Source: an uncultured bacterium
GTDB lineage: Bacteria; Armatimonadota; Abditibacteriia; Abditibacteriales; Abditibacteriaceae
DNA: 64,000 nucleotides
Direction of reading: 5' to 3'
Assembly (NCBI GenBank): GCA_963843795.1
Contig: CAWJLW010000006.1
Coordinates: 186,001 to 250,000 of the forward strand
The position numbers and the translations under genes are program-made. This document shows positions 6,831 to 63,262 of the stretch, one piece after another. A model generated the notes under the pieces. It saw nothing but the letters and a program-made list of their open reading frames with translations, ran no database searches and was not told the DNA's origin. Numbering within the stretch: the stretch's first letter is position 1; each line of letters starts with the position of its first letter.

Positions 6831-7450
6831 GAAGTTCTCAGACAAATACGGCTTGGCGTTCTCGGCAAAGGACGACGCCTGTGCGCCCCCGCAAGTACTT
6901 GCACCTGATACGCCCAGCATTGCTGACATTAACCACTGTTTCATAATTCCTTGGCCCGCTCACAAAATAAAAATAAAATCGCTCATTTCCACGGGCCAAG
7001 TGGAAATGAGCACGCTGCTCACCGATGTAACTGGCTGCACATTATCGAACTCGCCGCACCTCAAGCGCTGGTCACAACGAGTTCAAAGCGATATCACCGC
7101 ATAATGCGCCGCTTGCACACTTGCTGCAAGTACCCGCACACAGCACAGGCGCAGCTAAAGACACTGATCATGACAACTTTTTGGCCACAATCATTGCTCT
7201 CTTGGTAACACGAGGTATTTCGCAGATATTATAAGTCAACGCGTGTCATCAAGCAATGGTTTTCGGCGTTTGATTGGGCTTTTATTTCGTAATAAACCAA
7301 TTGTCTTTAAGCATGAAAGTTATGGTAAGATAGGCGTGAAATGGGTGTGGGGCTGAAAAGTGAATCAAAAGATGGAGTATTTGATTTCGGTCGCTAAGCG
7401 CCGCGTCTTTTGTTTTGGCAGCCGATTGCCTCACTGGTCGGAAGGAGAAA

Positions 7451-8461
7451 TTGGATATCGCTGTTACTCAGAAAGACATCGCTCGTCATCTTGGCATTTC
7501 GCGTTCGACAGTTGTGCAAGCTCTCAACGGTATTGGGCGCGTGCAACCGGAAACGCGCGACAAGGTGTTGCAAGCGGCACACGAGTTGGGATATCGGCCT
7601 AATCCGATGGCCCGCGCGCTGGTTTCGGGCAAAACCGAGCGGCTGGCGCTCTGGTATTATCCGATGCTCGACCCCAACTTGATGGAGATGGCGAACGAGC
7701 TGCAAATGCTGGTGCCGCCCTACAATTTGGTGGTGGCGAATCTGGGTTTATACAAACCGTCGTCCGATAGTTATACCGAACAGTTCCCACCCGCTGAGTG
7801 GCCGGTCGATGGAATTTTCGCCTACGACACTGGTTTGCCCGAACATATTTTGAGCAATATGAAGGGCGCGCCGCCGATGGTTTATATCGACACCGAACTC
7901 ACGACGGAAAATTATGACAAACGTGTCGATACGATTTTGATTGATATGCGACCCGGCACCGAAGCGGCGATTCGTCATTTGGTAGCCACTCGCCAGCGCG
8001 TGGCGATGCTGTGCTTGGAATCATTGGCCGCACCGGATAACTCGCGCGCGATTATTTATGAGCAAGTGTTGCGCGAAGCGGGACGCGAACCGGAATATAT
8101 TCCGGTGCCGGTGAACCGTTATTATCGCGACTGGGCGTATCGCGCGTTTCGAGAGTATGTGAAAGAAAATGGCTGCCCAGACGCGATTTTTTGTACCAAT
8201 GATGAACAGGCGGCGGCAGTCAATTGCGCTCTTTACGAAATGGGGCGTCGGGTGCCTGAAGATGTGGCGCTTATCGGTTTCGACAATCAACCCGAAGCGC
8301 GCTATCAAGCGCCGCCGCTGAGTACAGTTGCTTTACCGCTCACTGAAATTTGCCAGGTGGCGTGGCGCTTTTTGAAAAAGCGGCTCGAAGAACCGGACAC
8401 GCCACACCAACTCGAAGTGATAACAGCAGAGTGGATTGAACGCGAATCTTCAGCGGCGTGA
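7451..8461 (+). CDS. LacI family transcriptional regulator
   Basis: HTH TQKDIARHLGISRSTVVQAL, hinge YRPNPMARAL, C-terminal VPEDVALIGFDN..PPLSTV. TTG start follows AAGGAG. Confidence 0.93.
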   Translation: MDIAVTQKDIARHLGISRSTVVQALNGIGRVQPETRDKVLQAAHELGYRPNPMARALVSGKTERLALWYYPMLDPNLMEMANELQMLVPPYNLVVANLGLYKPSSDSYTEQFPPAEWPVDGIFAYDTGLPEHILSNMKGAPPMVYIDTELTTENYDKRVDTILIDMRPGTEAAIRHLVATRQRVAMLCLESLAAPDNSRAIIYEQVLREAGREPEYIPVPVNRYYRDWAYRAFREYVKENGCPDAIFCTNDEQAAAVNCALYEMGRRVPEDVALIGFDNQPEARYQAPPLSTVALPLTEICQVAWRFLKKRLEEPDTPHQLEVITAEWIERESSAA

Positions 8462-8576
8462 ATTGAGTGCAGCAAGTACTTGCAGCGATAAACACCTCGA
8501 AATGTGATTGTGGCACTCGTTGGCTAAAATAAGAGCGTCGCATTATCTCGATTAAATTTAATGGAAATCATTTTTT

Positions 8577-10516
8577 ATGGCTGTTTATCTGTCTTCTGCT
8601 ACGCTGGGCAACGACCAAACTTTGTTGACTCTTGGGCACAGCGGTGAATTAATGGCGTGGTTTTATCCGCACAAAGACCACGCCCAACAAATCCGCGAAT
8701 GTATGCCCGCGGTTTATGTGCGCGACGAGCACGGTGGCCACGCACACTGGACGTGGAGCGATAGTCTTCACGCGCGTGCAAACTTATTTGCCGCAATCCA
8801 ACTTGCTGCGCACGGTTCTCGAAGCGACTTCGCTGGGCTTGCGCCTCACTTTCAACGATTGCGTGCCGCTGCACGGCGCGGTTTTAATTCGTCGAATTGA
8901 AATTGAAAACACTGGCGAACGCGATTTGCGCGCGGCGGTTTTTCATAGCGGCGATTGGAATCTGGGCGGTTTTTCTCAGGGCAATGCGCTGCGCTTCGAT
9001 CACGATCATCAAATGTTGCTGCAAAACCACCGCGAAGCCGCACTGGCGATTGGCGGCGACGCGGTCGAAAGTTGGAGCTGTGGCAAAGCCGGTGCGAATT
9101 GGGGCAACAATGCCAAACGCGCGGTCGAAAACGGTCATTTATACGACAACGATCTGGAAATTGGCGATGTCGGCTGGGCCTTTGGTTTCGACTGTGATTT
9201 GCACGCGGGCACTGCGCTGCAAAAAACTGCGGTTTTCGCGCTCGCCGCGACCGATGAAGCCGCTGTTGCCGCCGCGCTGCACGCGTTTCATAATGCCGAA
9301 AGTTTGTGTGCCGAACGCAGCGCAGCCGATGAGAAATGGCTGAGCAAAGGCACCAAAATGCTGAAGAAAGCGTTGGCGTCCAAAAAGAAGTTGCCCGAAG
9401 ATTTACAAGTCGCCTACGAACGCTCGCTGTTGTGTTTGCCCTTGTTGTGCGGCGAAGAAGGCGTTGCAGTTGCGGCGCCGGAATTCGATCCCGAATTTAT
9501 CGCGTGTGGCGGTTACGGTTATTTTTGGCCGCGCGATGGCGGCGAATATGTATCGGGCTTAATCGACGCCGGTTATCCGCAGTTCGCGCCCGCGATGTTC
9601 GATTGGTGCGCGCGCCATCAGGATGCGGCAGGTTTGTGGCATCAGCGCTATTTCTTCAACGGCGCGCCCGCGCCCAACTGGTGTTTGCCGCCCGATATGC
9701 TGCAAATCGATCAAGTCGGTGCGGTCTTGTGGTCGTATGGCAAGTATTTGCAGACCGCCAAAGGCAAACCCAAAAGCGCGCACTTGGAAATGGTGCGACG
9801 CGCGGCAGATTATCTGCTGTCGCGCCAAACCGAACGCGGCGTTCACGCCAACGCTTTCGATACGTGGGAAACTTTTATCGGTTCGTTCACTTACTCCAAC
9901 GCCGCAATTCATTCGGCTTTTCTGGTCGCGCATCAGCAGTTGGGCGACAGCAAGTACTTGCAGGCCGCGCAAAGCACCAAAGCTGGGCGTGCTGAAACAT
10001 TTCGTGCGCGAAAGCGACGATTACAAGTATTTGGTGCGCGGTCTGGACTCGCACGGAAACGCCGATGAAACCGTCGATTCTTCCTCGCTGGGCGCTATCG
10101 AACCATTCGGTTTATTGGATTTGAGCGATGATGAAGAATTGGAAATTGCGGTGGGCACGCTGCATATTATGCGCGAGCGGTTGGAAGTCGATTGGATGGG
10201 CGGTCGCGCGATTCGCCGCTTCGAGGGCGATGCCTATGTCGGCGGCGTTCCGGCGTGTGTGAACACTTTGTGGATGGCGCGTTGCTCGCTTCACGTCGCG
10301 GCGCGTTTGCGCGAATTGGGGCGTGTTGCGGAAGCCGATGAGATGCGCGACCGCGCGCAGGGATATTTGCAGACGGTTTTGAAACGCGCGACGCCGACCG
10401 GTTTGCTGCCGGAACTCATGCAGGGGCCGGAAGGTCAGACGTTTTGGGCTGCGCCGCACGGTTGGGCAATGTCGAGCTTTGTTTCGGGCGTTTTGATGCT
10501 GGCGAAACAGTTGTAA
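8577..10516 (+). CDS. Glycoside hydrolase family 15 (glucoamylase-like), two frameshifts (about 8765 and 9985)
   Basis: YGYFWPRDG, QIDQVG, DTWE and GLLPE motifs spread over ORFs 8577-8900, 8716-10068 and 9623-10516. The second shift is at a GGG run. Confidence 0.85.
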
Positions 10517-10550
10517 AAATGTAGAATTATCAGTTGAGCGCGTATTTATC

Positions 10551-10594
10551 TCAGCGTTTTTCGGAGGTTTCGACCTTTGGAAAACGCTGATTTT
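10551..10594 (+). terminator. Probable intrinsic terminator hairpin
   Basis: TCAGCGTTTT..TTCG loop..AAAACGCTGA followed by TTTT, downstream of the GH15 gene. Confidence 0.55.
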
Positions 10595-10608
10595 GTCGCA
10601 AAATCGCT

Positions 10609-11787
10609 ATGGCTATTGCCGAACCGCTTTCTCCCGTTTCTCAGCGCAAACCGCGCAAGCGTTTGCCTGCGGCGGCGTGGCGTCCGTGCTTGTTCGATAT
10701 GGCATATGCGCGTGAGCTGCTGCTGCCCTTAACTCTTGGGATGTTGGTTTTGGTGGTCGTGATGAGCGGCAACTTTGTTTACGGCGCCATCAATTCCGTC
10801 GTCAATCAGGGCATTGGCATCGCGCCGATGCTGCGCTTGTTCTTTCTTTCGCTACCGGGTTTCGCGGTGCAGGGCGTGGCGGTCGGATTAATATTGGCAG
10901 TTTGTTTAGTGATTAATCGTGCGGTGCGAGATAACGAGATTATCGCGCTGCGTTCGGGCGGCGCATCGGTCGCGCGCATTCTGCTGCCGTTCTGGGTCAT
11001 CGCGCTTTTAGCGACTGGATTGGAATATACGCTGCTGGAAAAAGTGACGCCGGTGACCAATCAGATGGTTTATGAATCTTTAGCCAAGATGATGAAGACC
11101 AGCGCCACGCAACTTATCGAAGGCGATAAGTATTTTCGCGTTGGGCAGTATTATTTCTATGTCGGTAGCGCAGAAAAAGGCATCCTGAAAAATGTAATGA
11201 TTTACGAGCGCAATTCGGGTACTTTTAACGGGCTGCCCACGACAAATTATCCGAAAGTTTTCATCGCCCGCGAAGCGCGCGAAGACCCGAAGCACCCCAA
11301 TACCTGGGTTTTGCTCAATGGCGTGATTCATAATTACCAGAATAATGGCAAGCAGGCCAATGAATCGACTTTTGATTCGATAAGCATCAATGTCGGACAA
11401 GAATTATCGTCGTATTGGGCTGAACAAAAGGATCCGTTCGCGATGAGCGGCGATGAATTATCGAAGCAGATCAAAGATTTGGAAAACGCGGCTTTCGATG
11501 CGGGCCGAATTCGCGAAATGCAAGTAGCGCTTTATCGCAAATATTCGTTGCCCTTTGCGTGTTTCGTGATGGCTCTGTGCGCCGCACCGCTTTCTTTGCG
11601 TTTCGCGCGGCACGGCTCGTTCGCGGGTTTGGTGTGCGCGTTCTTACTGGCGTTTTTGTGGCAAGGTTTCGATGCGTGGTTCAGCGCTTTGGGCAAAGGC
11701 GGACACCTCGAACCAATAATCGCCGCGTGGAGCACCAATGCTTTGTTCCTGTTTTGCGGCGTGCTGCTTTTGTGGCGCGAACGTTGA
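10609..11787 (+). CDS. LptF/LptG family LPS export permease
   Basis: DNEIIALRSGGAS motif, 3+3 transmembrane layout with a central periplasmic domain, C-terminal PIIAAWSTN. Confidence 0.88.
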   Translation: MAIAEPLSPVSQRKPRKRLPAAAWRPCLFDMAYARELLLPLTLGMLVLVVVMSGNFVYGAINSVVNQGIGIAPMLRLFFLSLPGFAVQGVAVGLILAVCLVINRAVRDNEIIALRSGGASVARILLPFWVIALLATGLEYTLLEKVTPVTNQMVYESLAKMMKTSATQLIEGDKYFRVGQYYFYVGSAEKGILKNVMIYERNSGTFNGLPTTNYPKVFIAREAREDPKHPNTWVLLNGVIHNYQNNGKQANESTFDSISINVGQELSSYWAEQKDPFAMSGDELSKQIKDLENAAFDAGRIREMQVALYRKYSLPFACFVMALCAAPLSLRFARHGSFAGLVCAFLLAFLWQGFDAWFSALGKGGHLEPIIAAWSTNALFLFCGVLLLWRER

Positions 11788-11828
11788 AAGTGTGTGGCAA
11801 GTACTTGCCACAGGCGAAATTTCCTCTT

Positions 11829-14501
11829 ATGCAACTGCGTCCTCTATTTCTTGTTTTGGCCTTCTCACTTCCTGCACACGCTCAGGAAGCTGGCGTTCCG
11901 GAAGCCAAAGCGCCGTCGGAAAACGCGCCTGCAACCGAGCCAAAAATTGAAGCCGCAGATGTGCCGGACGCGCCCACGCCCCATATCGAAGCGACGGTGC
12001 CAACCACGCGCACTTCGGAAAGTAATCGTCTGGTGCCGGTCGCGCCTGAAACGCAGGCCGGAATTGGCAGCGTCGATAGGCCGCTGCCCTCGGTCAACAG
12101 TTCGACTATTCAGCCCACGCTCGATGGCACCGAAACCAGTTCGCAAACCGCTTTTACGCCCTTTGGCGCGCAAACTTTAACGCCCGTGCCGCCAATTCCC
12201 ACCGTGCCCGCCGATCCCAGCGATATTGGCGGGCAAGAAACGCGTGGCGGCGATTTTAATTTGAAAGCACCCAATGGTGTGATTTACGATGGCGAACGCG
12301 GCATCGCTTTCGCGCAAAAAGATATCGTCTTCACTTATCGCGAATTCACGGTGCGCGGACAACGCGCCGTTATCGACTACAATTCCAATACGGCCATTTT
12401 GTCCGACAATCTCACCGTGACTGCGCGTTTGGGTAGCGTGATGCAAACTTTCACCGGTCAATCGCTGCGCTTTAATCTGGTGACGGGCGAATGGACATTA
12501 AGCCAGATTCGCGCGACTTTCCCGCCCGAATTCTTTCCGCCCGGCGAAGTTTTGGAGCCGCTTTACATTCGCGATGGACAAGTTGTGGGCGAAGGCGAAG
12601 ACGCCAAAGGTGAAAACTTTACCTTCTCGTCGTGCGACCGAGATCATTATTATATTCGCTCGAAAAGCATCACATTCCGGCGCGACGCTCAGGGCAACAC
12701 CGAACGCATTGCGCTCAAGAAAAACGCGATTTATGTATTTGGTAGAAAACTGCTACCAGTTCCTTCGTTCGTCATCAATTTACAGGGCGCGCGCTCGCGC
12801 AACAGTCCGTTGCAGCCAACTTTTGGACAAAACGCTTACGATGGTTTTTTCGCCAAAACGGTTTACGGATTGGCTGAAACCAGTCGCCGCACCGATTCGC
12901 TCCTCATCGACGCGTTGCAAAAGCGCGGCTTAGGTTTGGGATTGCAGCGCGAACTGGCGGGCGGCGCAGGCTTGTTTTATCTTTATGCGCTTTCGGGCAC
13001 GAACAGCAGCGGCGGACGCCAGATCGACGCGCGCATTCAGCGCAATTTGCAAATTGCCAAGAACCTTCGCGGCAGCCTAAATTTCAATTCGACGCAGAAT
13101 AACGCGCTGTCGGGCAGCGGTTTTCGTTCGCAAAACGGCAGTCTCAGTTTCAATTACGCCAAAGCCAGCACGCAAAGTAGTTTGCTCCTTTCCAATAGCA
13201 ATACTGGCTCGCCGCTGTCGAGTTTTTCGCAAAAAAGCGCCAGCTTTTCCTACCGTCAGCAGCTGGATCAGGCGTGGAATGTCAGCTTGAATTCGCGCTA
13301 CAATAACAGCAGTTCGACCGGCTCGACCGGTTTATCAACGTTGGATAACATCGCCAGTTTGAACCGGCGCAGCGCGCTTTTCGATGCCTCGCTGGGCATT
13401 GAAGCTCACAATCAATTAACCGGCGAAAATACTGGCTCGTATCAGTTAGAACGTTTGCCGGAACTGCTTCTCAACTCCGATTCGCGACGTTTGGGCGGCG
13501 GCGCTCTCGACCGATATTTGCCCGGAGAATTCGTTTTATCGCTGGGTCGCTTCAACGAACCTTTTTCCGGCCAGCGCCTTAATCGCACCAGCTTCGCTTA
13601 TAGCGCGAATACGCGCACGTTAAATTTAGTGCAGAAAAGCGCGCTGCGTTCGCAATTGAACGTGGGCGGAAAATTCGGACAATCCCTATATTCCGATAAC
13701 ACGGCGCGCTATGATTACACGGTAAATATGAGCCTGAGCACGGGATTTGGCAAACCGCGGCGTGGCGCGGGCGACAACTTTCAATCGCAGTTGGAAGGTC
13801 TTTTCGACCCGACTTCGATTGGCACTAATTTCTACAACGCGTCAGCGCGCGCCAATGGCGATTCGCCGCTGCAATTGAATGTCGATTATTTCAAGTTGCG
13901 GCCCGTTGGTTATACGCCATTTCAATTCGATTTTCTCTCGCCCAACGAAAATGTACGTTTCAAAGGCGTTTTCCAACCCAGCACCAAAGCGCGGCTGGAA
14001 TTTTCGGGTGGGCGCGATTTGCAACGCGGTTTCAATAACGATTTAATCGCCAGTTTGCGCCTTAAGCCTTCGCCTTCAGTCGGGCTGGATTTTTCGACTT
14101 CCTATTCTCTGGAAAACAGCCAATTGGGCGACCTTGTTGGTAACGCTTACATCACGCGTTCACGGCGCAAATTTTTTGGCGGCGCGTTTTCGCTGGGCGT
14201 TCAATATTCGCCTCAAACCAGCACGCTGGCTGCCGTGCGCACCGGAGCCGATATTCAATTGGGCGCCAAAACGCGTCTACAAGCCTTGGCGGGCTACAAC
14301 GGATATACCAAGCGCTTTGAAACTCAGCAGTTCCGTCTTGTTCGCGACCTGCATTGTTTCAACTTATATGCGACTTATGATGGTTCGCTCAAGCAATTTC
14401 GACTCGATCTGGCGCTCAAAGCCTTTCCCTTCACCGATTCGCGCTTAGGTTACAATCGCTTCGGCGAAAGTTTCGACCCCACAATTCAAGGCGTGCAGTA
14501 A
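11829..14501 (+). CDS. LptD/OstA-like outer-membrane LPS assembly protein
   Basis: Signal peptide, Pro-rich linker, FTFSSCDRDHYYIRSKSI-type motif, beta-strand-rich C-terminus with RDLHCF; adjacent to LptF/G. Confidence 0.65.
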   Translation: MQLRPLFLVLAFSLPAHAQEAGVPEAKAPSENAPATEPKIEAADVPDAPTPHIEATVPTTRTSESNRLVPVAPETQAGIGSVDRPLPSVNSSTIQPTLDGTETSSQTAFTPFGAQTLTPVPPIPTVPADPSDIGGQETRGGDFNLKAPNGVIYDGERGIAFAQKDIVFTYREFTVRGQRAVIDYNSNTAILSDNLTVTARLGSVMQTFTGQSLRFNLVTGEWTLSQIRATFPPEFFPPGEVLEPLYIRDGQVVGEGEDAKGENFTFSSCDRDHYYIRSKSITFRRDAQGNTERIALKKNAIYVFGRKLLPVPSFVINLQGARSRNSPLQPTFGQNAYDGFFAKTVYGLAETSRRTDSLLIDALQKRGLGLGLQRELAGGAGLFYLYALSGTNSSGGRQIDARIQRNLQIAKNLRGSLNFNSTQNNALSGSGFRSQNGSLSFNYAKASTQSSLLLSNSNTGSPLSSFSQKSASFSYRQQLDQAWNVSLNSRYNNSSSTGSTGLSTLDNIASLNRRSALFDASLGIEAHNQLTGENTGSYQLERLPELLLNSDSRRLGGGALDRYLPGEFVLSLGRFNEPFSGQRLNRTSFAYSANTRTLNLVQKSALRSQLNVGGKFGQSLYSDNTARYDYTVNMSLSTGFGKPRRGAGDNFQSQLEGLFDPTSIGTNFYNASARANGDSPLQLNVDYFKLRPVGYTPFQFDFLSPNENVRFKGVFQPSTKARLEFSGGRDLQRGFNNDLIASLRLKPSPSVGLDFSTSYSLENSQLGDLVGNAYITRSRRKFFGGAFSLGVQYSPQTSTLAAVRTGADIQLGAKTRLQALAGYNGYTKRFETQQFRLVRDLHCFNLYATYDGSLKQFRLDLALKAFPFTDSRLGYNRFGESFDPTIQGVQ

Positions 14502-14920
14502 AATGCGTGGCAAGTACTTGCTGCAAGTACTTGCAGGACGATGAAAAACTATTTTCAATAAATTTTTTCTTAGCTGTAGTTATCTTGATACGGTTTGTCT
14601 TCTCACTCAAATTTTCACTGTCAATCGGTTAAATTCTCAGTGCTGCGAGCGGTCGGATGGAGACCATCAGAGATCAGCCATGTAGCCAGCAGCAAAATCA
14701 GCAGCCCAAAGCCTTGCCATGACGGAGTTTGTTGAGTGTGCTCGCGGTAACTCTTTCAAAGCACGCCATTCCGATTGGCGCCGCCTTGCCACAGCGCGGT
14801 CGCTGTCATAAAAATGCGCCAATCGATCGGATAAAGTTCCCGAAATTGCTCGAACAAAAGAAAATCATGGGGAAACTTTTACCGACCGAAAATTTGCCCT
14901 GTGGAAATTTGCCGCAAACG

Positions 14921-16681: not shown

Positions 16682-16824
16682 TAAATTACAAAGATAATAG
16701 AATTTGCGTCAGTGTGCCAAGCGATTTTGGACAATAAAGGAAAGAGTTTTGCAACGCTGCTGGGGCTTGGTAGTTTCCTGTAAGTACGTGCGGGATGATT
16801 GTGAGGCATTTAAGGGAGAGCGCG

Positions 16825-17163: not shown

Positions 17164-17207
17164 TTGAGCGTGCCAATTACCAAAGATAATACAGAAGCGA
17201 GAAAAAG

Positions 17208-17231
17208 TGCGCTGCAAGTACTTGCAGCGCA
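17208..17231. terminator. 24-bp perfect palindrome centred on the 12-mer, between convergent genes
   Basis: TGCGCT-GCAAGTACTTGC-AGCGCA with an A-rich left flank. Confidence 0.6.
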
Positions 17232-17284
17232 TTGGGAATTTTTCAAAGCTTCTATGAATTTCGAGATGAGGAGCTGAGACGACT

Positions 17285-18809: not shown

Positions 18810-18817
18810 GGCATTTT

Positions 18818-52173: not shown

Positions 52174-52196
52174 ACGAATTTTGTTCACCCAATTAT

Positions 52197-52235: not shown

Positions 52236-52240
52236 TGACA

Positions 52241-52270: not shown

Positions 52271-52302
52271 GGGTTCGCGCGAATGTGGGAAAATTAACAG
52301 CC

Positions 52303-53664: not shown

Positions 53665-53725
53665 TTTTCGCGTTTCGCCTCGTGGCAAGTACTTGCAATT
53701 CCCAATTTCACTCAAACTGCTCGCT

Positions 53726-55480
53726 ATGATCGCATTGTCGCAACCTAAAATTTGTCGCTTGCTGTGCTGGTTTGCGCTTGCACTCAGCGGTTGCACGTCG
53801 AAAAATTCAGTGCCTGTTACAGATTCGCAAAACACAGTTGCACCGGTAGCTGCGAGCCAGAAAACAACGTTATTTCAAGATGTGGCAACGCGCGCCGGCT
53901 TAAATTGGAAGCACAATTTGGGCGATAGCGGCGAGTTTTATTTCATCGAAAGTACGCCCTCTGGGTGTGCGTTTCTCGACTTCGATAACGATGGCTGGCA
54001 GGATATTTTTCTGGTGCAATCGGGCGCGCCTGTGCCAAAAGATAAAAATTATCGACGCCCCTTTTGCGCACTTTATCGCAATAATGGAAACGGCACTTTC
54101 GTCGATGTGACGCGCGCTGCGGGGTTGGAGAAAGATTTCGGCTACGCTCAGGGCGTCACGGTTGGCGATTATGACAACGACGGCTTCGACGATTTATTCG
54201 TCACGGCGTATGGCGGCAACGCTCTGCTGCACAACGAAGGTGGCAAAGCGTTTCGCGATGTCACGCAGGCAATGAAAATGCCCACCAAATACGGCACCGG
54301 TTACGCCACGAGCGCGGCATTTGGCGATTACGATAACGATGGTAAGCTCGATTTGTACGTTTGTCATTACGCGCAATGGACGCCCGCAACCAACAAAAAA
54401 TGTCGCGCGCGCGATGGCGGCATCGATTATTGTTCGCCCTTGATTTACCAGCCCGAAAGCGACCGTTTGTATCGCAACGAAGGCACGCGCTTTCGTGATG
54501 TGAGCGAAGAAAGCGGCATCGCCAAAGCGCGCGGTCGCGGCCTTGCAGTCGCGTTTGTCGATTACAATTCCGATGGCAAGCAGGATATTTTCGTGGCCAA
54601 CGATTTAACGCCCAACCTGTTGTGGCGCAATGATGGCAAAGGTCATTTCACTGATGTCGCAGTCGAAACCGGCTGCGCTTATGGCGATCAGAGTCAGGCG
54701 ATGGCGGGCATGGGCGTTGCCGTTGCCGATTACAATCGCAGCGGTCGTCCGAGTTTGTATGTCTCGAATTTTTCCAGCCGTCCGAACGTGCTGTTCAAAA
54801 ATGAGGGCACTTATTTTCAAGAGGAAAGCACAGCAGCGAACTTAATCGAATCGCATCTCGACTTGCTTTCCTTTGGCTGCGAATTTCTCGATTACGACGC
54901 CGATGGCTGGCCCGACATCGTGGCCAACAATGGCCATGTTCAGCAGCGCAAAGCGCAGCGCGAACCCGGCATCGAGCTTCAACAACGCAAACAACTGCTA
55001 CGCAATCTGGGTGATGGCACTTTCGCCGATATTGCTTTAAGTGAACTGGGCGACTTGAAAACGCCGCGCGTGGGACGCGGTTTGGCAGTCGGCGATTACG
55101 ATAACGATGGCCGCGTCGATATTTTGGCGATGAATCAAAACGCCGCACCGCAATTGTTTCGCAACGAATCACTGCGCGACAATCACTGGGTTTCGTTCGC
55201 CACACGCGGCACTAAAAGCAATCGCGACGGCTTGCACACGCGACTGGAAATTAAAGCCGGTGGCGCGCGCCAAACATCCAGTGTGCGCGCCGGTTCAAGC
55301 TATTTGTCTTCGAGCGATCATCGGGTGTATTTCGGTTTAAAAGACGCGACCGAAATCGACGAATTAAAAATAATCTGGCCCAGCGGCACGCGCGAAACCT
55401 TGAAAAATCTGAAAGCCGACCAATTTTACACGCTTACCGAAGGCAAAGGTGTAACGGCGAAAAAATCAGCTGCAAAATAA
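53726..55480 (+). CDS. CRTAC1/ASPIC-UnbV family FG-GAP lipoprotein
   Basis: Lipobox LSGC, repeated DYDNDG..D motifs, C-terminal SYLS..FGL..WPSG. Confidence 0.9.
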   Translation: MIALSQPKICRLLCWFALALSGCTSKNSVPVTDSQNTVAPVAASQKTTLFQDVATRAGLNWKHNLGDSGEFYFIESTPSGCAFLDFDNDGWQDIFLVQSGAPVPKDKNYRRPFCALYRNNGNGTFVDVTRAAGLEKDFGYAQGVTVGDYDNDGFDDLFVTAYGGNALLHNEGGKAFRDVTQAMKMPTKYGTGYATSAAFGDYDNDGKLDLYVCHYAQWTPATNKKCRARDGGIDYCSPLIYQPESDRLYRNEGTRFRDVSEESGIAKARGRGLAVAFVDYNSDGKQDIFVANDLTPNLLWRNDGKGHFTDVAVETGCAYGDQSQAMAGMGVAVADYNRSGRPSLYVSNFSSRPNVLFKNEGTYFQEESTAANLIESHLDLLSFGCEFLDYDADGWPDIVANNGHVQQRKAQREPGIELQQRKQLLRNLGDGTFADIALSELGDLKTPRVGRGLAVGDYDNDGRVDILAMNQNAAPQLFRNESLRDNHWVSFATRGTKSNRDGLHTRLEIKAGGARQTSSVRAGSSYLSSSDHRVYFGLKDATEIDELKIIWPSGTRETLKNLKADQFYTLTEGKGVTAKKSAAK

Positions 55481-55486
55481 GCAAAG

Positions 55487-55522
55487 CAAAAGCGCCCCGC
55501 AAGTACTTGCGGGGCGCTTTTG
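55487..55522. terminator. 36-bp perfect palindrome (bidirectional terminator-like) centred on the 12-mer
   Basis: CAAAAGCGCCCC-GCAAGTACTTGC-GGGGCGCTTTTG between convergent genes. Confidence 0.8.
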
Positions 55523-55556
55523 TGTGTCTAATGTGCAACGTTAGCGGCTCGAATAT

Positions 55557-58422
55557 CTACGCGCCACCCGCCGCGCTCGCGTTACCTGCGGCATCGTTAC
55601 GCGCGGCGTAAGTTCCAGCGATCACCAGCGTGCCCATGCCGGGCTGCAAGTACTTGCGAGCGGCTTCATTGACCTGCGCGGGTGTGATGGCTTTGTAGTA
55701 ACTGTTGCGTTTCTGAATGTAATCGTTGCCCAAACCATACACTTCGGCGGCCAGTAATTGATTGGCCACACCCGCGTTAGTCGAAAGCGTAATCGCATAC
55801 GAACCGGTCAGGTAATCAATGACATCTTGCACTTCTTTACTTGTGAAACCTTTATCGCGCGCCAGAGAAATTTGGCTTTGCATTTCGGCGATAGCTTTAT
55901 CGACGTTGGCCGGATTACTGCCAAATTGCACCTTGAACGGGCCAGCACCCAGACTGGCATCGGTGCCCGCGTAAATGCCGTAAACCAAGCCCAAACGGTC
56001 GCGTACATTGACCGCGAGACGCGACGTGAGGCCACCACCGCCCAAAATGGTGTTCAGCACAATCACGCGATAAAAATCGGGATCGCTGCGTTTGAGATGT
56101 CCGGCGTAGCCATACAAAACATCGGCCTGAGTTTTATCGGGCACCATAATAACCGAAGTTTTGGTCGTTGCGGTGGCGATATTGGTATCGGGAATATCGA
56201 GCTTGGGCAGATTGCCCTGCTTTTTCCAGTCGCCAAAGCGCTGCTTGATTTCATCTGCGGCTTTGGCGCTGTTCACGTCGCCGACAATTGTCAAAATCAA
56301 GCGTTCCGGGCCGTAATGCGCCTGATAAAAATTCATCAAATCGTCGCGCGTGAAAGATTTGATGGCCGCGATACGTTCATCGAGAGTCGCTTCGTGATAC
56401 GGATGTCCGACCGGATAAATCGCATTCGCGAAGGCAATTTGGGCCAGCGTTCCGGTATCCTGACGCGCATCTTCCAGACCGGCTAAAGCGCGGGCGCGCG
56501 CCTTGTCAAGTTCGGCCTGTGGAAAGGCCGGATTGCGCAACTGGTCGGCGAGAATATCGAGCATGGTGCCGAAATCGCCGGTCAGCGAACGACCGCCCAA
56601 CGACACGTATTCGTCGCCAGCACCAATATTCGCGCTGGCGCCGACATCTTCCAGAGTGCGCGCGATGTCCAATAGCGAACGTGTTGTCGTGCCGCGCGAC
56701 AGCAAGTCGGCGGTGAATGCGGCCAGGCCGGGTTTATTCTGCGGATCGAAAACACTGCCCGCCGAAAGCAGCGCGCCGCTGAGAGAAACCGCTGGTGTGG
56801 CGTGGTTTTCCTGCACAATGACCGTGATTCCGTTGTCGAAAACCAAACGTTTGGGTTCGACTTTCAGCGCGGGTTTGGCTTGCGCATTAGCCTTAATTTG
56901 AATTGCCGTGTTCGCAGACTTTTGCGGCGTGTTCGGCGTCAGGCGCGGCTCGGTTTTGGCATCGGCCACAGTTTCAATAACTGGCTTGGCTGCGAGCTTT
57001 GCGGATGGAATATTTTGCGTGGTGGTCTTTGTTTTCTCCGCGACAATCGGCTCGAAATAACCAACGGTACGATTGTTTTCGACGAGATACTTGTTGGCGA
57101 CGCGCTGGACATCGGCGGGTGTGACTTTGCGCAGATTTTCCAGATAGGTTTCGCCATAACGCCAATCGCCACGCATCGCGTTGCCGCCCAGTTCGCTGCC
57201 CTGCGACTGGACTGAATCCTGACCGAACACATACTGCGCTTCGGCCTGTTTGAGGGTGCGCTTGAGTTCGGCAGCGCTGATCGGCTCGGTTTTCACACGC
57301 TCGATTTCGGCCAACAAGGCTTTTTCTAATTCGGCATTTGTGTGGCCGGGTTGCGCAGCAGCGTCGAGATAAAACAAATCGGGATCGCGTAAACCGTAAT
57401 CGTAGGCATTGGCGTCTGAGGCCAAGCCGCTTTGCACCAATTTTTCAAAGAAGCGCGCGGTGCGTCCACCGGATAAAACGTTTTCCAAAACGTCCAGAGC
57501 ATAACGGTCGGGATCGCCAAAACCGGGAATGTGATAGACGATTTGTATTTGCGGCGTCGTGCCTGCGCGACGCACGATCACGCGGCGTTCGCCCTGCTGC
57601 ACCGGTTCGGGCGTGATGAAATGGCGCTGAATCGGGCGTTTCGGGAATCGCACCGAAATACTTTTCCAGCATCTTCATCGCATCGGCGGTGGCGAAATCG
57701 CCGACCATAACCACAGTCGAATTTTCGGGCGCGTAATAATTGCGATAGTAATTGTACATTTCATCGCGCGAAATGTTTTCGATGTCGGAACGAAAACCAA
57801 TCGGTGTCCAACGATAAGGATGAACTTGAAATGCCGCCAAGCGCACCGCTTTACTCAGCGCGGTGCCCGGATTATTTTCGCCACCTTCATATTCCGAGCG
57901 TACAACCGTCATTTCTTTCTGGTGCTCTTTTTCGTCGAAAAGCGAATTCACCATGCGGTCGGCTTCCAACTGCATTGCTTTTTCCAAGCGGTCTGAGGCG
58001 ATGGTTTCAAAATAATTGGTGCGGTCGAATGAAGTCGTCGCATTGAACTGGGCGCCATTCTGCTGCAAATAAGCGCTGATTTCGCCCGGTTTGCGCGTCT
58101 TGGTGCCCTTGAACATCATGTGCTCGAGCAAATGGCTCATGCCAGATTGTCCTACTTGTTCGTTAACTGAACCAACGTTATACCAAACCGAAAAATACAC
58201 AACCGGAGCGCCACGCACTTCTTTGGTCAGCACTTTGACGCCATTGGATAAAACCGATTCGCGAATGCCATTAAGCATCATCGGTAGCGGTGACGTTTTT
58301 AAAGTGGATGTAGGAACTGCGGGCGCGGCGTGAACCGGAAATTGTGCCCACAAAGGTGCGATGAGTAATAGGGGAAGCGATAACAAACGTGACTTTTTGG
58401 AAGACCTTTTCATCGTGTTCAT
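55557..58422 (-). CDS. M16 family (insulinase/pitrilysin) zinc peptidase, frameshift at about 57643
   Basis: HLLEHMMFKGT, NATTSFDRTNY, second half SRL..VR..LGLVY; a single extra base joins the two ORFs. Confidence 0.9.
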
Positions 58423-58677
58423 TCAAATAAACCTCTCTTAATCGCATGGACATTTTTTCATGTTCAGTCGTTCCCCAACAATAAATTCTATTGTTGCCAA
58501 CGAGTTTCAATTGTGGCGGCTGGCGTTGATAACTGTTTTTTATGGCCTTGAAGAGTGATGCAAGTACTTGCAGCGCGGAATATTAGCAGGCGCGCGGTTG
58601 CAGACTTCGCGAAATCGCACTCAATGCGCGAGTGCTAAAGCGCTACACTATCTCATTATCAATATAGTAGAGGAATT

Positions 58678-60768
58678 ATGGCCAAGAACCCGTCAAGAAA
58701 AAATCATTTGAAAAAAATCGCGCGCCGCGTTTCCGAGGGCAAGCTCGTCGTCGATCCTAAAACTGCTCAAGTCAAGCCAGCACGCAAGCCGCGTGCGGCT
58801 AAAATTACCAATCCGGGCGACTTTGCCAAGCGCGCGCCCGAAACCAAAAAGCCGGTCAACAAGCGCGCCGCCAAAGCGCGTGGCGAAAAGCCACTGCCGC
58901 CCGCTTTCGAACGCTTTCTCGATAAGCAGGCCGCGCAAAATGGCGAAACTTCGTTTCCCGCCACGCCCGCTGCACCCGACACCAAAAAAGCCAAAACTAA
59001 AAACAAGGTTGCTCCTGAAAGGGAATTTGCTGAAGCTGATTCGTACGAAGTTGAATCGCCTGTTGTTGAAACACGAGTGACGGAAGCGCGCGCAAAATCA
59101 CCGAAAAAATTTGCGCCGGTCGAAAACGCTCCGCTCGCACCTGCGAACTCCGCCAGCGTAAGCGCCGAGGATGACGAAGAATTGCCTGGATTTTCGGAAC
59201 TCGGTTTGAGCGAATCGACCGAGAAAGCGCTGCGCGAAATGGGATTTGAAACGCCGACACCGATTCAGGCGCGCGCGATTCCGTTTCTATTGCAAGGCCG
59301 CGATTTAATTGGCCAAGCGCAAACCGGTACTGGCAAAACTGCCGCGTTCGCGCTTCCGTTAATCGAAAAAATGGAGCTTTCCAGTTTGAAAACGCAGGCT
59401 TTGGTTTTGGCTCCCACGCGCGAATTGGCGGTACAAGTCGCTGGTGGAATTTACGACTTGGCCAAAGGCAGCGGTTTGAAAGTGGTGCCGGTTTACGGTG
59501 GTCAGCCTATCGACCGTCAGTTGCGCGCACTGCGCAGCGGCGCTCATATCGTGGTCGGCACGCCGGGCCGCGTGCAAGACCATCTGCGGCGCGGTTCGCT
59601 GTCGTTGCAAAACATCAGCGTTTGCGTTTTGGATGAAGCCGACGAAATGCTCGCATTGGGTTTTTTGGAAGAAATTGAAACCATTCTTAAAGATTTGCCC
59701 GAAGAACGCCAATTGGCATTCTTCTCGGCGACGATGCCGCCGAAAATCACGACCCTGATGAAAACCTTTTTGCGCAACCCGGAAACCGTTTCCATCGGCG
59801 GTAAAAAGCGCACATTGGAAGCGACCAATCAGGCGTATTACGAAGTGGCGCGTGGTCAGAAATTACAAGCCTTGGCACGCATTCTGGATATGGAAACGCC
59901 CGGTTCGACAATTGTGTTTTGTCGCACGCGCCAGGAAACCAACGATTTGGCCGAAGCGCTGCGCTTGCGCGGTCATAATGCGGAAAGTTTGCACGGCGAT
60001 ATGAATCAATCCGAGCGCGAACGCGTTTTGAAAAAGTTCCGCGATGAACATTGCGATTTGCTGGTCGCGACCGATGTGGCCGCGCGCGGTTTGGACATCG
60101 ACAGCGTAACGCACGTTATCAACTACGATATTCCGTGGGATGTGGAACAGTATATTCATCGCATCGGGCGCACCGGCCGCGCCGGTCGCAGCGGCGATGC
60201 GATTACTCTTGTGCAAGGTCGCGAACTGCGGCAGTTAAAGCAGATCGAAAAAATGATCGGCGCAAAAATTAAATCTGTGCGCTTACCTTCGCCCGCCGAC
60301 ATTGCCGCGCGCCGTCGCGAAAATTTCAAGCAGGCGCTGCGCGATATGTTGGACGAAGGCGAATATGACGCTCATCTCGCGACGGTGGGCGAATTGTCCG
60401 AAGATCACGATTTAAGCGAAATCGCTGCGGCAGCTTTGCAAATGTTGTGGAAAAGCCAGCACAGCGATAGCGCCAAGCTCGCGCAGGAAATGCAGGCCGA
60501 TGGCGAGCAACCAGAGCAGGGCATGACGCGCATTTTCGTCAGTTTGGGGCGCGGCGATAATTTGCGTCCGGGTGATTTGGTCGGTGTGATCGCCAACAAA
60601 ACTGGCTTGTCGGGACGCGATATTGGTACGATTGATATTTTAGATCGCTCGTCGTTTGTCGAAGTACCCAGCGCCAGCGCCGAAGACGCCATTCAAGCGC
60701 TGCGCAGTGCACGGCTGAAAGGTAAAAAAGTTGATGCGCAAATCGCGCGACCCCGCGATGTGCGCTGA
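58678..60768 (+). CDS. deaD: DEAD-box RNA helicase DeaD/CsdA-like with DbpA-type RNA-binding domain
   Basis: PTPIQ, AQTGTGKT, PTRELA, DEAD, SAT, HRIGRTGRAG, C-terminal RPGDLVG..IGTIDI. Confidence 0.88.
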   Translation: MAKNPSRKNHLKKIARRVSEGKLVVDPKTAQVKPARKPRAAKITNPGDFAKRAPETKKPVNKRAAKARGEKPLPPAFERFLDKQAAQNGETSFPATPAAPDTKKAKTKNKVAPEREFAEADSYEVESPVVETRVTEARAKSPKKFAPVENAPLAPANSASVSAEDDEELPGFSELGLSESTEKALREMGFETPTPIQARAIPFLLQGRDLIGQAQTGTGKTAAFALPLIEKMELSSLKTQALVLAPTRELAVQVAGGIYDLAKGSGLKVVPVYGGQPIDRQLRALRSGAHIVVGTPGRVQDHLRRGSLSLQNISVCVLDEADEMLALGFLEEIETILKDLPEERQLAFFSATMPPKITTLMKTFLRNPETVSIGGKKRTLEATNQAYYEVARGQKLQALARILDMETPGSTIVFCRTRQETNDLAEALRLRGHNAESLHGDMNQSERERVLKKFRDEHCDLLVATDVAARGLDIDSVTHVINYDIPWDVEQYIHRIGRTGRAGRSGDAITLVQGRELRQLKQIEKMIGAKIKSVRLPSPADIAARRRENFKQALRDMLDEGEYDAHLATVGELSEDHDLSEIAAAALQMLWKSQHSDSAKLAQEMQADGEQPEQGMTRIFVSLGRGDNLRPGDLVGVIANKTGLSGRDIGTIDILDRSSFVEVPSASAEDAIQALRSARLKGKKVDAQIARPRDVR

Positions 60769-60803
60769 GTGAAAACAAGCTGATTTGAAAAATCAGGTTG
60801 AAA

Positions 60804-60852
60804 CCAAAACGCCCCGCAAGTACTTGCAGCAAGTACTTGCGGGGCGTTTTGG
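60804..60852. terminator. 49-bp palindrome with two tandem 12-mers, between convergent genes
   Basis: CCAAAACGCCCC-GCAAGTACTTGC-A-GCAAGTACTTGC-GGGGCGTTTTGG. Confidence 0.8.
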
Positions 60853-60876
60853 ACTGGTTTTATCGCAACGCTTGGC

Positions 60877-61677
60877 TTAGCCGTTGGATTTCACGGTTTG
60901 GCTCGCAACGTCCACTTTATCCAGACCGATGCTTTTGACATGACCATCAGCGTACAAAAAGCAAGTGGTTTGCAGATGGCGCTCGACGTAAGCGCCTGAA
61001 GCGGCAGTGGGCGGATTGACACCAGCGAAACGATAGCCGTTGCCATCATCAGGACCGATACCCGACACGCCGTTCAAATCGACACGAGGCGCTCCGTTGC
61101 TATCGGATACCCAGATGGTGGTGGTCGGGTCTTGCAGTGAAGACAATTTCATGCCTTTTGCGCTACCCGCGAGAACCGGCGCGCCGGGGCCTTTCAGGCC
61201 GATAGCGCCAGCATCAGTACGATTGTAAGCGTTCATCGCATAGCTGCCGCCGCCATTGGCCGCGAAGCCGACCGGTTTTGTTACATCCCAACCGGCAGCC
61301 GCCGCCGGAATGTATTCGGCACCTTCAAAATCGGCGCTGGGGCACTCGAAAATCTGCGTGCTTTTGGCGTATGGCTGAAGTAAACCCATCCAGACCGCGC
61401 TGCCACCAGCACCAGCCGTGCAAGCATCGCCGGTCGCGCTGTTGTTCATACACGCGGCGGGTACGCGCTCGCTGAAATCCTGCGCGTATTGCATGAGGCC
61501 CAGACCCATTTGTTTCAGGTTGCTCTGGCAAGAAGCACGGCGCGCGTTTTCGCGAGCGCGGCCAAAAACCGGAAACAAAATCGCGGCCAGGATTGCGATG
61601 ATTGCTATCACGACTAACAGCTCGATGAGAGTGAAGCCGGAGCGGCGTGTAGAACTACGTTGTAAATACAATTTCAT
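60877..61677 (-). CDS. DUF1559 prepilin-type protein with H-X9-DG C-terminus
   Basis: [54 protein letters not shown]. Confidence 0.93.
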
Positions 61678-61958
61678 GGTGTTGCCTCCAAATTGGCGGA
61701 ACCTGCAAATGATTTCATAGACCAAACCTTTAAAAAGTCATTCAAATAGTAGAATTTAATTTATTAGCAGGTGCACATTTTTGTTCCGAATGAGTCGTAG
61801 CGGTCACTATTGCTACTCTTCAACTATAACACTTATCAGTTCGTCTCCACAACACTGACTGCAAGTACTTGCAGGATGTTTCATAGCCCTCGCACACTCG
61901 AAATAGCCATAGAAAATTGAATATTCAAAACCATCGCACAACTTCGGTTGTGAAATTT

Positions 61959-63236
61959 ATGCCCAACACATCTTCTTTCTCACCCCCAACACCTGCGAAA
62001 CGCACCTCTGGCTTAGGATTTATCTTCGTGTTACTGCTCATCGATGTGATGGGCATCGGCCTGTTGATTCCAATTTTGCCCGGATTTATCGCCCAGTTAT
62101 CGCACCAAACGCTGAGCGCGGCGGCGCGCGATTACGGCTGGCTGCTGGCGTTGTATGGCGCGATGCAGTTTTTGTTTTCGCCGCTTATTGGCACACTCAG
62201 CGATCAATTCGGGCGTCGTCCGGTATTGCTGGTTTCACTTTTCTGCACCGGCATCGAATACGTTTTGATGGCGCTTGCGCCGAACTTGATCTGGCTTTAC
62301 ATTGGGCGCACTCTGTCGGGCATCACCGGCGCCAGCATTACCGCAGCCAACGCTTATATCGCCGATGTGAGCGCGCCTCACGAGCGTGCGCAGAACTTCG
62401 GATTGGTGGGCGCGGCGTTTGGTCTGGGCTTCGTCATTGGCCCGGCATTGGGCGGTTTTCTAGGGCAATGGGGACCGCGCGTGCCGTTCTGGGCCGCAGC
62501 GGTTTTCTGCTTCGCCAACTTTTTATACGGCTGGCTGATTTTGCCCGAATCGCTCAAGCCAGCAAACCGTCGTCGCGTCGATTTGCGCTTAGCCAATCCT
62601 GTGGGTGCTTTGGGCATTCTTAGCCGCTATCCGCTGGTGTGGGGCTTAACCGGTTCTCTTGTGGTGACTAATCTGGCGATGAACTGTATCAACAGCACAT
62701 GGGTTTTGTTCACTGAAATGCGCTTTGATTGGAACTCAACGCAAGTCGGGTTTTCGCTTGCCGCTTTTGGCACTGTCGCACTGATTTATCAATTGGGATT
62801 GGCGCGCATTTTACTGCCGCTGTGGGGCGAACGCCGCACGATGTTAATTGGTTTGGCCGTTGGCGCGATTGAGTTCGTGGCCTACGCGCTTTCATCGCAG
62901 GGCTGGATGATTTATGCGATTATGCTGCTCGGTGGTTTGGGCTTGTTGGCCGGACAAGCGACACAGGGTTTGCTGTCGCGGCAAGTCGGCGAAGATGAGC
63001 AGGGCGCTTTGCAGGGCGCATTGAGCAGTTTGGCGAGCCTGACCGGAATTTTCGGCCCGCTCATTGGCACTTTTCTGTTCGCGCATTACACGCAACGCGG
63101 CGCGCCGATTTTTCTACCCGGCGCACCGTTTCTGCTCGCTGCTGCGCTCAACCTCGTGGGCCTGATTATCGCGGTGCGGTTTCTGGCGCGCTGGCCCGAA
63201 CCGCAAACCACATCAGGCGTCGCGCTGACCGAATGA
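61959..63236 (+). CDS. TCR/Tet family MFS transporter (DHA1)
   Basis: GTLSDQFGRRPVLL, AYIAD, GFVIGPALGG, LPES, EQGALQG. Confidence 0.9.
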   Translation: MPNTSSFSPPTPAKRTSGLGFIFVLLLIDVMGIGLLIPILPGFIAQLSHQTLSAAARDYGWLLALYGAMQFLFSPLIGTLSDQFGRRPVLLVSLFCTGIEYVLMALAPNLIWLYIGRTLSGITGASITAANAYIADVSAPHERAQNFGLVGAAFGLGFVIGPALGGFLGQWGPRVPFWAAAVFCFANFLYGWLILPESLKPANRRRVDLRLANPVGALGILSRYPLVWGLTGSLVVTNLAMNCINSTWVLFTEMRFDWNSTQVGFSLAAFGTVALIYQLGLARILLPLWGERRTMLIGLAVGAIEFVAYALSSQGWMIYAIMLLGGLGLLAGQATQGLLSRQVGEDEQGALQGALSSLASLTGIFGPLIGTFLFAHYTQRGAPIFLPGAPFLLAAALNLVGLIIAVRFLARWPEPQTTSGVALTE

Positions 63237-63238
63237 CA

Positions 63239-63262
63239 GGTGCTGCAAGTACTTGCAGCACC
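63239..63262. repeat. 24-bp perfect palindrome filling the gap between convergent genes
   Basis: GGTGCT-GCAAGTACTTGC-AGCACC. Confidence 0.8.

Follow-up and report, generated by a model that had tools for sequence, protein, structure and literature searches.

To our knowledge, only three bacterial groups are well known for words repeated about once per kilobase: the Neisseriaceae, the Pasteurellaceae and the cyanobacteria. Other repeated sites that serve for comparison are SlmA sites, which are absent from the terminus, and REP/RAYT elements, which are extragenic, bear a tetranucleotide head and flank the RAYT gene. The 12-letter palindrome GCAAGTACTTGC of an Abditibacteriaceae genome (G000) resembles each of these in part. 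Like HIP1 (GCGATCGC) and the alternate HIPs of cyanobacteria, it is a short palindrome that recurs roughly every kb, inside genes as well as between them, with lineage-specific extensions around a fixed core, in genomes that also encode a conserved orphan methyltransferase (PMC4390886, PMC5861425, PMC13756078). A genome-wide excess and in-gene positions conserved between genomes, two points on which the likeness to HIP1 was tested, were both found. The palindrome differs from HIP1 in sequence, in phylum, in its length of 12 bp, in being strongly intergenic and in its even spacing at 1.5 kb. With the DUS of Neisseriaceae and the USS of Pasteurellaceae it shares thousands of exact copies, dialects around a shared core, inverted pairs, terminator co-option, an intergenic excess, permissive protein positions, the lack of strand bias and empty islands, and the same sources describe overlapping dyad pairs in Simonsiella as well as AT tracts and even spacing for USS (PMC3630211, PMC7811141, PMC1939737). 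Unlike those words, it is palindromic in G000 and belongs to a family with three unrelated cores.

The SlmA-binding site, as quoted in the sequence-only reading, has the same AGTACT core, length of 12 bp and palindromic symmetry. However, the sites described here number in the thousands and none are missing at the terminus, and SlmA was rejected as their reader, its C-terminal domain being found in 0 of the 5 genomes searched with a positive E. coli control. REP/BIME elements with RAYT are likewise intergenic palindromes with terminator-like hairpins, but 29% of the present copies lie in genes, with no GTAG/CGTC head and no longer conserved element, and a separate REP family is present in G000. 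The E. coli gyrase motif shares a symmetric G+C wave with a period of ~10.7 over ~130 bp (PMC6379681), but its phase is off by 4 bp per side and gyrase lacks a strict core. The earlier proposal of a lineage-specific, genome-wide signal that is neither DUS, USS, HIP1 nor the SlmA site is thus borne out.

With 2,567 exact copies in a genome-wide count, the palindrome is the commonest 12-mer of G000, against Markov expectations, with the motif masked, of 0.12 (order 3) and 7.4 (order 5). Its 36 single-mismatch variants sum to 506, a ratio of about 5:1 in favor of exact copies, and the extended consensus runs beyond 12 bp (aaa..gcgctGCAAGTACTTGCagcgc..ttt). The window, meaning the whole 64-kb stretch analyzed (G000:C6:186001-250000), is an ordinary piece of G000 in this respect. 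Its 47 exact copies between 6891 and 63256, as first reported, compare with a shuffle mean of 0.01, and none of 100 shuffles reached this number. The reported split into 29 intergenic and 18 in-gene copies became 31 and 16 with our own gene calls, because start-codon choice differs (Table 1). An Rfam search of the window gave no match, a scan of genome contigs gave at least 36 single matches among those listed, all chance-like, and four viral scans gave 6, 1, 4 and 9 loci, with a dense word in none. Sites 21748, 24302 and 25647 show no difference in public contigs, from a run that is possibly the source of the assembly. A contig from a second run, differing at 9 positions over 158 bp, spans site 17637, and 0 of the 8 listed differences fall inside the motif.

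Table 1. Palindrome copies and associated features in the 64-kb window, with candidate protein genes elsewhere in G000. Coding and intergenic classes follow our own gene calls; gene names are from Pfam.
Feature	Position	Remark
16 coding-sequence copies	9950..55657	own gene calls
Coding copies read as ASTC	19714, 21748 (rsmB), 24302 (def), 32256, 47188	
Coding copies read as QVLA	17637, 22046 (rsmB), 29081, 37419, 46233, 47298, 50914, 51043	
Coding copies read as KYL	9950, 25647, 55646	
15 copies between co-directional genes (6891..53696)	6891, 8472, 11797, 18479, 27089, 27880, 32788, 34539, 37124, 39550, 40569, 44981, 50245, 52250, 53685	
9 copies between convergent genes (14510..63256)	14510, 14523, 17214, 30589, 42306, 55499, 60816, 60829, 63245	
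7 copies between divergent genes (20276..61872)	20276, 24883, 39038, 43268, 43312, 58560, 61861	
36-bp perfect palindrome around copy, A run before, T run after	18467..18502	two-way terminator-like hairpin; predicted terminator activity
36-bp perfect palindrome around copy, between convergent genes	55487..55522	two-way terminator-like hairpin; predicted terminator activity
Tandem doublet, 13 bp apart	14510..14534	
Second tandem doublet, also at 13 bp, within longer hairpin between convergent genes	60816..60840	
Two neighboring copies at a distance of 44 bp, with unique spacer, between divergent genes	43268..43323	
50-bp perfect palindrome centered on copy	32237..32286	inside ORF without Pfam match (31230-32777, minus)
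Motif-free stretch	1..6890	G+C 0.57-0.61; ORFs of surface proteins (LTD, DUF11) in fragments; probably a recent acquisition
Two tandem AP2-domain proteins of G000	C6:2124483-2125031 and C6:1248447-1248965	
MT1	G000:C6:2517365-2518135	only PF01555 match in G000

Palindrome density in G000 is 2.81 per kb outside genes and 0.205 inside, and the 751 coding copies occur in all three frames. Density is even from origin to terminus, with equal replichores (0.644 and 0.646 per kb) and no terminus gap (0.61 vs. 0.64 per kb), while the mobile islands carry no copies. Intergenic spacers of at least 100 bp are occupied equally often whether divergent or tandem (0.54-0.59). The spacing is more even than expected, with a gap CV of 0.757 against 0.843 ± 0.012 (0/500), and the CV is 0.52-0.73 in seven other data sets; HIP1, judged from plasmid pAQ7 only, is not under-dispersed (0.97 vs. 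0.90). In addition, a newly seen feature is gap filling, in which copies are added where intergenic ones are sparse and proteins are bent to fit. As the gap widens, core coding copies climb from 0.83 per 10 kb to 3.27 while control peptides stay flat, in-gene copies are fourfold denser where intergenic copies stand far apart, and a model of one site per fragment fits best at 1.5-2 kb (a gain of 16.5 log units). The peptides written by the palindrome are in excess over expectation (ASTC 134 vs. 3.9, QVLA 565 vs. 38, KYL 310 vs. 114). Sites were gained by substitution, with alignment gaps near 1 of 30 aligned sites against a background of 2-3%. In-gene positions are common to genomes in 7/21 and 2/9 cases, against 3.8% and 3.5%, and further in 4/12 with G001, 2/14 with G012 and 0/5 with G009; convergence at permissive codons may be the source of this sharing.

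A second newly seen feature is a helical A/T wave: every copy in G000 centers a symmetric wave that extends ~100 bp to each side with a period of ~10.7 bp (10.68 [10.60-10.78] vs. 11.2 for the genome background). Its amplitude is 0.024, unchanged whether or not the first tract is included; anchors placed on A tracts give 0.005-0.006, and anchors at start or stop codons give 0.0006-0.003. Tandem, convergent, divergent and coding copies all show the same symmetry between their upstream and downstream sides (amplitude 0.033-0.046, phase 4.1-4.9). Helical phasing is also seen in 88 close intergenic copy pairs (R 0.48 vs. 0.17 for the jitter null, 0/2,000). The test, which drew on only 40 windows in G016/G018 and left out G020, gave no wave above null in data set K (32/60), G012 (11/60) or single G006 copies. 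On pAQ7, again plasmid data only, the HIP1 wave is half the size, with a period of 11.5 (0.017 vs. a null maximum of 0.016). Three features had escaped the sequence-only reading: the regular spacing of the copies, their helical wave and the service of many of them as terminator hairpins.

Across the family, 11 of 27 genomes carry a word at 2,000-4,700 copies (G006 judged from a 240-kb sample), and these words fall into three unrelated cores, namely the dialects built on AGTAC and two further words, both non-palindromic and unrelated. The words are palindromic in G000 and non-palindromic in G006, G007, G016, G018 and G020. Because these relatives use non-palindromic words at equal density, the family as a whole can do without symmetry, which weakens the earlier suggestion of a dimeric protein. 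A signal read on double-stranded DNA is supported. In G006, 150 of 227 sampled copies sit in inverted pairs, as is described for DUS dialects (PMC3630211). No motif was seen in samples of 18-78 kb from the other 16 genomes. A tree of one gene places carriers next to motif-less genomes as sisters (G012/G017, G006/G004, G020/G013+G024 and G007+G016+G018/G002+G010), so that the trait seems to be dispensable and its word arbitrary.

Competence genes are widespread in the family (comEC 27/27, comEA 25/27, dprA 25/27; all three in G000), and they fail to separate motif-bearing from motif-less genomes. The comEA neighborhood holds no carrier-specific gene, and the ComP-type receptor PF16732 matched 0/5 genomes, with control genomes likewise giving no match. 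Several other candidate readers were rejected: HU and YbaB (each 5/5), an HNH-repeat protein (5/5) and an HTH_17 protein (5/5) do not track the trait, the histone fold is found in 0/5 genomes, and there is no shared extra ParB, with a single copy in G009 and G012. Tandem AP2-domain proteins, present in 18/27 genomes, also do not track it, occurring in all seven AGTAC-word genomes, ten motif-less genomes and G020, and not in G007/G016/G018; paralog B is nearly invariant across dialects and paralog A is absent from the near-complete G009. A ranking of abundant proteins by codon bias failed because the bias was too weak.

In combination, the palindrome points to a reading protein that serves either self-DNA uptake or chromosome folding. 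The preferred reading, with a probability of roughly 0.45, is that the palindrome marks double-stranded DNA as a tag for a protein, sits at the apex of a bend and has spread because self DNA is preferentially taken up. A sequence-specific protein, most likely part of the natural-transformation pathway, would bind the 12-mer with the DNA bent around it, and a single site would suffice for ~1.5-2 kb. Fragments with a site, easily bent there, would be taken up or recombined more often, so that sites and phased A/T tracts would pile up by molecular drive wherever the neighborhood lacks a site. As a secondary use, many intergenic copies have grown into terminator-like hairpins. This reading accords with the 5:1 excess of exact copies, the higher density outside genes, the excess peptides, gap filling, the gain of sites by substitution, empty islands, the three unrelated cores, the inverted pairs of G006, the dispensable-looking trait and the presence of competence genes. 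DNA kinking is thought to start uptake, phased AT tracts aid USS uptake (PMC7811141), and HIP1 raises transformation (10.1101/2024.09.10.611283). Against uptake, however, competence genes do not discriminate carriers, no receptor was found, the two-sided wave to 100 bp exceeds the AT tracts described for USS, and Neisseria DUS, the one true DUS set tested, behave differently. Their 414 sites in 282 kb are spaced near-randomly (CV 0.86 vs. 0.92), and 252 isolated DUS show no wave above null (17/60, 10/60), whereas equal-sized G000 samples exceed it (0/60); with paired copies included, the wave rises above null on one side (0/60). Chromosome architecture is a possible though less probable alternative, in which an abundant sequence-specific nucleoid protein would bend or wrap 150-200 bp per site in a loop-tip lattice every ~1.5 kb. 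A structural role, which has been proposed both for HIP1 (PMC5861425) and for bends at the tips of loops (PMC3940949), would suit a wave far above A-tract and codon anchors and symmetric in all copy classes, the phased close pairs, the even spacing and the equal replichores. It sits poorly with the 16 genomes in which no motif was sampled, sisters of carriers included, with the nulls for the wave in K, G012 and single G006 copies, and with candidates (HU, YbaB, histone fold, ParB, SlmA) that do not track the trait; it is also hard to explain how structural sites in their thousands could be switched to a word of unrelated sequence. Somewhat more doubtful still is a sequence-addressed bending lattice, in which a protein would wrap or bend 150-200 bp at a fixed word every ~1.5 kb, with phased A/T tracts and proteins adapted to it and the word swappable between sisters.

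The remaining explanations are less probable. Methylation-directed conversion was reportedly Elhai's proposal for HIP1. Here, the orphan adenine methyltransferase MT1 would mark GTAC and biased repair would write the palindrome around it, which is improbable. MT1 lacks a conserved neighbor in 14 loci and has relatives in 22/27 family genomes, GTAC, its putative target, is the most depleted 4-mer in MT1-bearing motif-less genomes relative to those that gave no MT1 match (O/E of 0.22 against 0.64), and HIP1 contains orphan methyltransferase sites (PMC4390886). Nevertheless, MT1 occurs in carriers and non-carriers alike, genomes without it are mostly one clade, G016 without it still purges GTAC (2 vs. 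51), two family words lack GTAC, and repair bias predicts neither gap filling nor the flanking wave. The names of MT1 homologs point to the Abditibacteriaceae as the family of G000, but the best characterized matches of MT1 are only 28-36% identical, so that specificity is not readable from homologs. No methyltransferase tracks the motif, which leaves this the weakest of the three roles first suggested. It is very unlikely that the palindromes are built-in strong gyrase sites, as might be suggested by the symmetric 130-bp pattern of the E. coli motif with its period of 10.75 (PMC6379681) and the one type IIA topoisomerase A subunit found in G000: the A/T maxima lie at 14.5, 25.5, 35.5, 46.5 and 56.5 bp, against 18.5, 29.5, 39.5, 49.5 and 60.5 bp for gyrase (Table DS10), the unshifted correlation is r = -0.44, and the GyrA N-terminal catalytic region is alike, by eye, in carriers and a non-carrier. 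Least probable of all is an RNA-level or mobile repeat, either a terminator module or a REP-like element copied between genes. Intergenic copies make up some 70% of the total, and an extended stem with a T run accompanies 188/290 convergent-gene and 282/1,235 tandem-gene copies, yet hairpins occur in only 11 of the 751 coding copies and the RAYT-like (Y1) gene of G000 is flanked by another, GTAG-type repeat. As a primary role this is largely refuted by the coding copies in all three frames, the filling of divergent spacers as often as tandem ones and the gain of sites by substitution.

The Abditibacteriaceae thus form a fourth group with such words, and one with several words and with carrier and non-carrier sister lineages, so that the reader can be found by comparison. 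Gap filling predicts that one site serves ~1.5-2 kb, and the phase-locked wave predicts that a flank shift of half a helical turn weakens function. Either outcome matters, as the palindrome would represent either a novel code for self-DNA uptake, read by an equally novel receptor, or a new mode of folding the bacterial chromosome.

The sequence-only reading had claimed 47 exact copies of GCAAGTACTTGC between 6891 and 63256 of the window, and recounting returned the same number against a mean of 0.01 in 100 shuffles. Genome-wide, the word is the most abundant 12-mer, with 2,567 copies in 4.30 Mb (11 contigs), compared to 0.12 to 7.4 expected under Markov backgrounds with the motif masked, while all one-mismatch variants together number 506. 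Most 50-kb bins of the 3.6-Mb contig hold 25-43 copies. The proposed origin-to-terminus and island maps likewise upheld the enrichment: the replichores, assigned from GC skew, carry 0.644 and 0.646 copies per kb, with 0.61 in the terminus region, and the three largest copy-free stretches contain, from sequences read by eye, transposases, a type I restriction locus and conjugation genes. The 12-mer is a real signal spanning the whole genome, in which the window corresponds to G000:C6:186001-250000. Homologs of one protein bear the names Abditibacterium utsteinense and Abditibacteriaceae, which places the genome in that family.

Each copy is surrounded by a periodic wave of A/T content, with maxima at 14.5, 25.5, 35.5, 46.5 and 56.5 bp from the copy center, that is gone by about 100 bp. 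Its amplitude is 0.024, compared to 0.005-0.006 at anchors on A tracts remote from copies and 0.0006-0.003 at start and stop codons, and is unchanged with or without the first A/T tract. In each of the four site classes (tandem, convergent, divergent and coding) the wave has the same shape on both sides, and its period is 10.68 (10.60-10.78) against a genome background of 11.2. Helical phasing is also seen in 88 close intergenic pairs whose spacers are unique (R 0.48, reached in 0 of 2,000 jittered sets), which a shared wave would explain. Intrinsic DNA curvature is associated with phased A tracts in excerpts of one report (PMC3940949), and we infer that each site marks a bend's apex.

Our own calls of 3,372 genes allowed 2,560 of the 2,567 copies to be assigned: 1,235 lie between co-directional, 290 between convergent and 271 between divergent genes, 751 are coding and 13 fall on an edge. 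Density is 0.205 copies per kb within genes vs 2.81 outside. Coding copies use all three reading frames and have bent the proteome, in which the peptides ASTC (134 observed, 3.9 expected), QVLA (565, 38) and KYL (310, 114) are in excess and control peptides are at the expected level or lower.

Approximately 60% of spacers of at least 60 bp hold a copy, independent of spacer length, and occupancy climbs from 0.34 to 0.78 as the flanking genes get longer. The gap CV is 0.757, rising to 0.843 ± 0.012 after random re-placement of coding copies (0 of 500 permutations as low). The 468 copies deep within well-supported genes become denser the farther apart the intergenic copies lie, increasing from 0.83 to 3.27 per 10 kb, a trend that persists within every gene-length class; two control-peptide sets are flat across gap sizes. 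A one-site-per-fragment model fits best at 1.5-2 kb. Across all eight data sets measured, relatives among them, gap CV is 0.52-0.73.

Two features set this signal, HIP- or DUS-like in kind, apart from the controls tested, which were small. In 282 kb of one Neisseria MAG (414 DUS), gap CV is 0.86, close to the 0.92 of randomly spaced sites (70-99 of 1,000); isolated DUS show no wave above null, and with paired copies included a wave is above null on one side. HIP1 on plasmid pAQ7 has a gap CV of 0.97 and a weak wave of period 11.5, and 30 HIP1 sites on a Nostoc plasmid show no wave. A 26-kb island raised the CV to 0.92 in one of three samples of the study genome run beside these controls.

Across 40 related genomes, exact GCAAGTACTTGC occurs 0-3 times per genome. 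Six of the 27 family genomes hold AGTACT 2,813-4,733 times; in the remaining 21 its count is 1-285. Dialects of the word are CAAAGTACTTTG in G001, TCGAGTACTCGA in G009, G015 and G019, cGAGTACTCg in G012, and the non-palindromic AGTACGGTCGA, frequently in inverted pairs, in G006; two metagenome organisms (about 70% DNA identity) have the 10-bp core of the study genome's word. Unrelated words take the same role elsewhere in the family: CAGCCACG, with 2,676-3,503 copies in G007, G016 and G018 (131-529 in the other 24), and CCACAAAAAATGA, with 2,035 copies in G020 (0-17 in the others). No word stood out in samples of 18-78 kb from the other 16 genomes. GTAC is near-purged from many motif-less genomes (examples are G013, with none where 37 are expected, and G005, with none where 27 are), a purge absent from G010, G021 and G023. 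In an RsmB tree whose base is without resolution, carriers and non-carriers pair as sisters several times. The wave is above null in G007 (period 11.2-11.4), G009 (11.4) and metagenome organism M (10.4), each 0 of 60, on one side only in G016 and G018, and marginally at pair centers in G006 (1 of 60); none was seen in G012, metagenome organism K or single G006 copies. Coding positions are shared more often than background predicts, at 7 of 21 and 2 of 9; the study genome has 4 of 12 in common with G001, flanks swapped, 2 of 14 with G012 and 0 of 5 with G009. Coding copies were gained by substitution, and the shared positions could be convergence at permissive codons.

Features by location (C6, contig of the study genome G000; other G, related or control genomes; L, individual loci or contigs)
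Location	Locus	Observation
Window 1-6890		No motif; raised G+C; large surface protein (LTD, DUF11) in broken-up ORFs
Window 32237-32286		Perfect 50-bp palindrome within an ORF without Pfam match
C6:751700-752500	L351	Short Y1 transposase-like gene between inverted GTAG-type REP-like repeats; repeat head has 22 matches in G000
C6:2124483-2125031	L227	Stand-alone tandem AP2-like protein; one domain matched Pfam, below cut-off; conserved, with L243, in 18/27 family genomes
C6:1248447-1248965	L243	As L227
C6:1267950-1270238		GyrB; acidic low-complexity insertion of ~100 residues in C-terminal half (by eye)
G007, G016, G018	L089, L090, L310-L319	CAGCCACG, ~3,000 copies; in G007 sample 92% within ORFs, on either strand; flanking wave the strongest observed
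G020	L065, L134, L146	CCACAAAAAATGA, non-palindromic 13-mer; many close pairs/triples, some inverted around GAATTC, like G006
G024:C98	L147	7.8-kb contig with 9/18 of G024's AGTACT; foreign DNA or mis-binned
Metagenome contigs	L166, L180, L182, L183, L186	Same word, terminator-like flanks, no G000 gene match
G043 (Neisseria MAG)	L330-L346	Top 10-mer GCCGTCTGCA, 322 copies; GCCGTCTGAA only 92, in 282 kb

The search for co-occurring genes suggested by the sequence-only reading did not return a reader among the candidates compared across family genomes. Almost all family genomes carry comEC, comEA and dprA, and tandem AP2 proteins, HU, YbaB, ParB, the histone fold, SlmA, an HTH_17 protein and an HNH-repeat protein do not follow the trait. 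No report of GCAAGTACTTGC was found in the literature covered, most subscription journals and k-mer survey supplements being outside its scope; by title and abstract, no work on Abditibacteri- palindromes or repeats concerned such a word, and the matches listed for five dialect words were unrelated. Excerpts of PMC4390886, PMC5861425, PMC13756078, PMC12324340, 10.1101/2024.09.10.611283 and PMC3630211 served for comparison.

Several purposes could be served by such a word. Terminator-like hairpins accompany 188 of 290 convergent, 282 of 1,235 tandem, 27 of 271 divergent and 11 of 751 coding copies; divergent and tandem spacers hold a copy equally often, and termination is thus a secondary use. 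The REP/RAYT-like family of this genome is distinct from the 12-mer, and a terminator or REP origin, a poorer fit than uptake or folding, is the least probable reading. Gyrase sites, also a poorer fit, are scarcely more credible: the E. coli gyrase motif, as excerpted from PMC6379681, matches the wave in length and period but has A/T maxima 4 bp farther out (r = -0.44). Methylation-directed conversion, again fitting less well, is unlikely; the orphan methyltransferase MT1 may read GTAC but is present in 22 of 27 family genomes. Chromosome folding best accounts for the long symmetric wave and the contrast with the Neisseria sample, and is a tenable though doubtful purpose.

Uptake-driven accumulation would be the best reading of purpose (probability about 0.45), as it best explains why the words are arbitrary, why some relatives have non-palindromic ones, why copies form inverted pairs and why sister lineages have lost them. 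In the parts of the sources consulted, uptake sequences are reported to be evenly spaced (PMC1939737, citing Karlin) and DNA uptake is thought to start with a kink (PMC7811141). Whichever the purpose, a protein probably binds bent double-stranded DNA at the word, and the data show a word held exact although proteins pay for it, required roughly once every 1.5-2 kb and in fixed helical register within bendable DNA.
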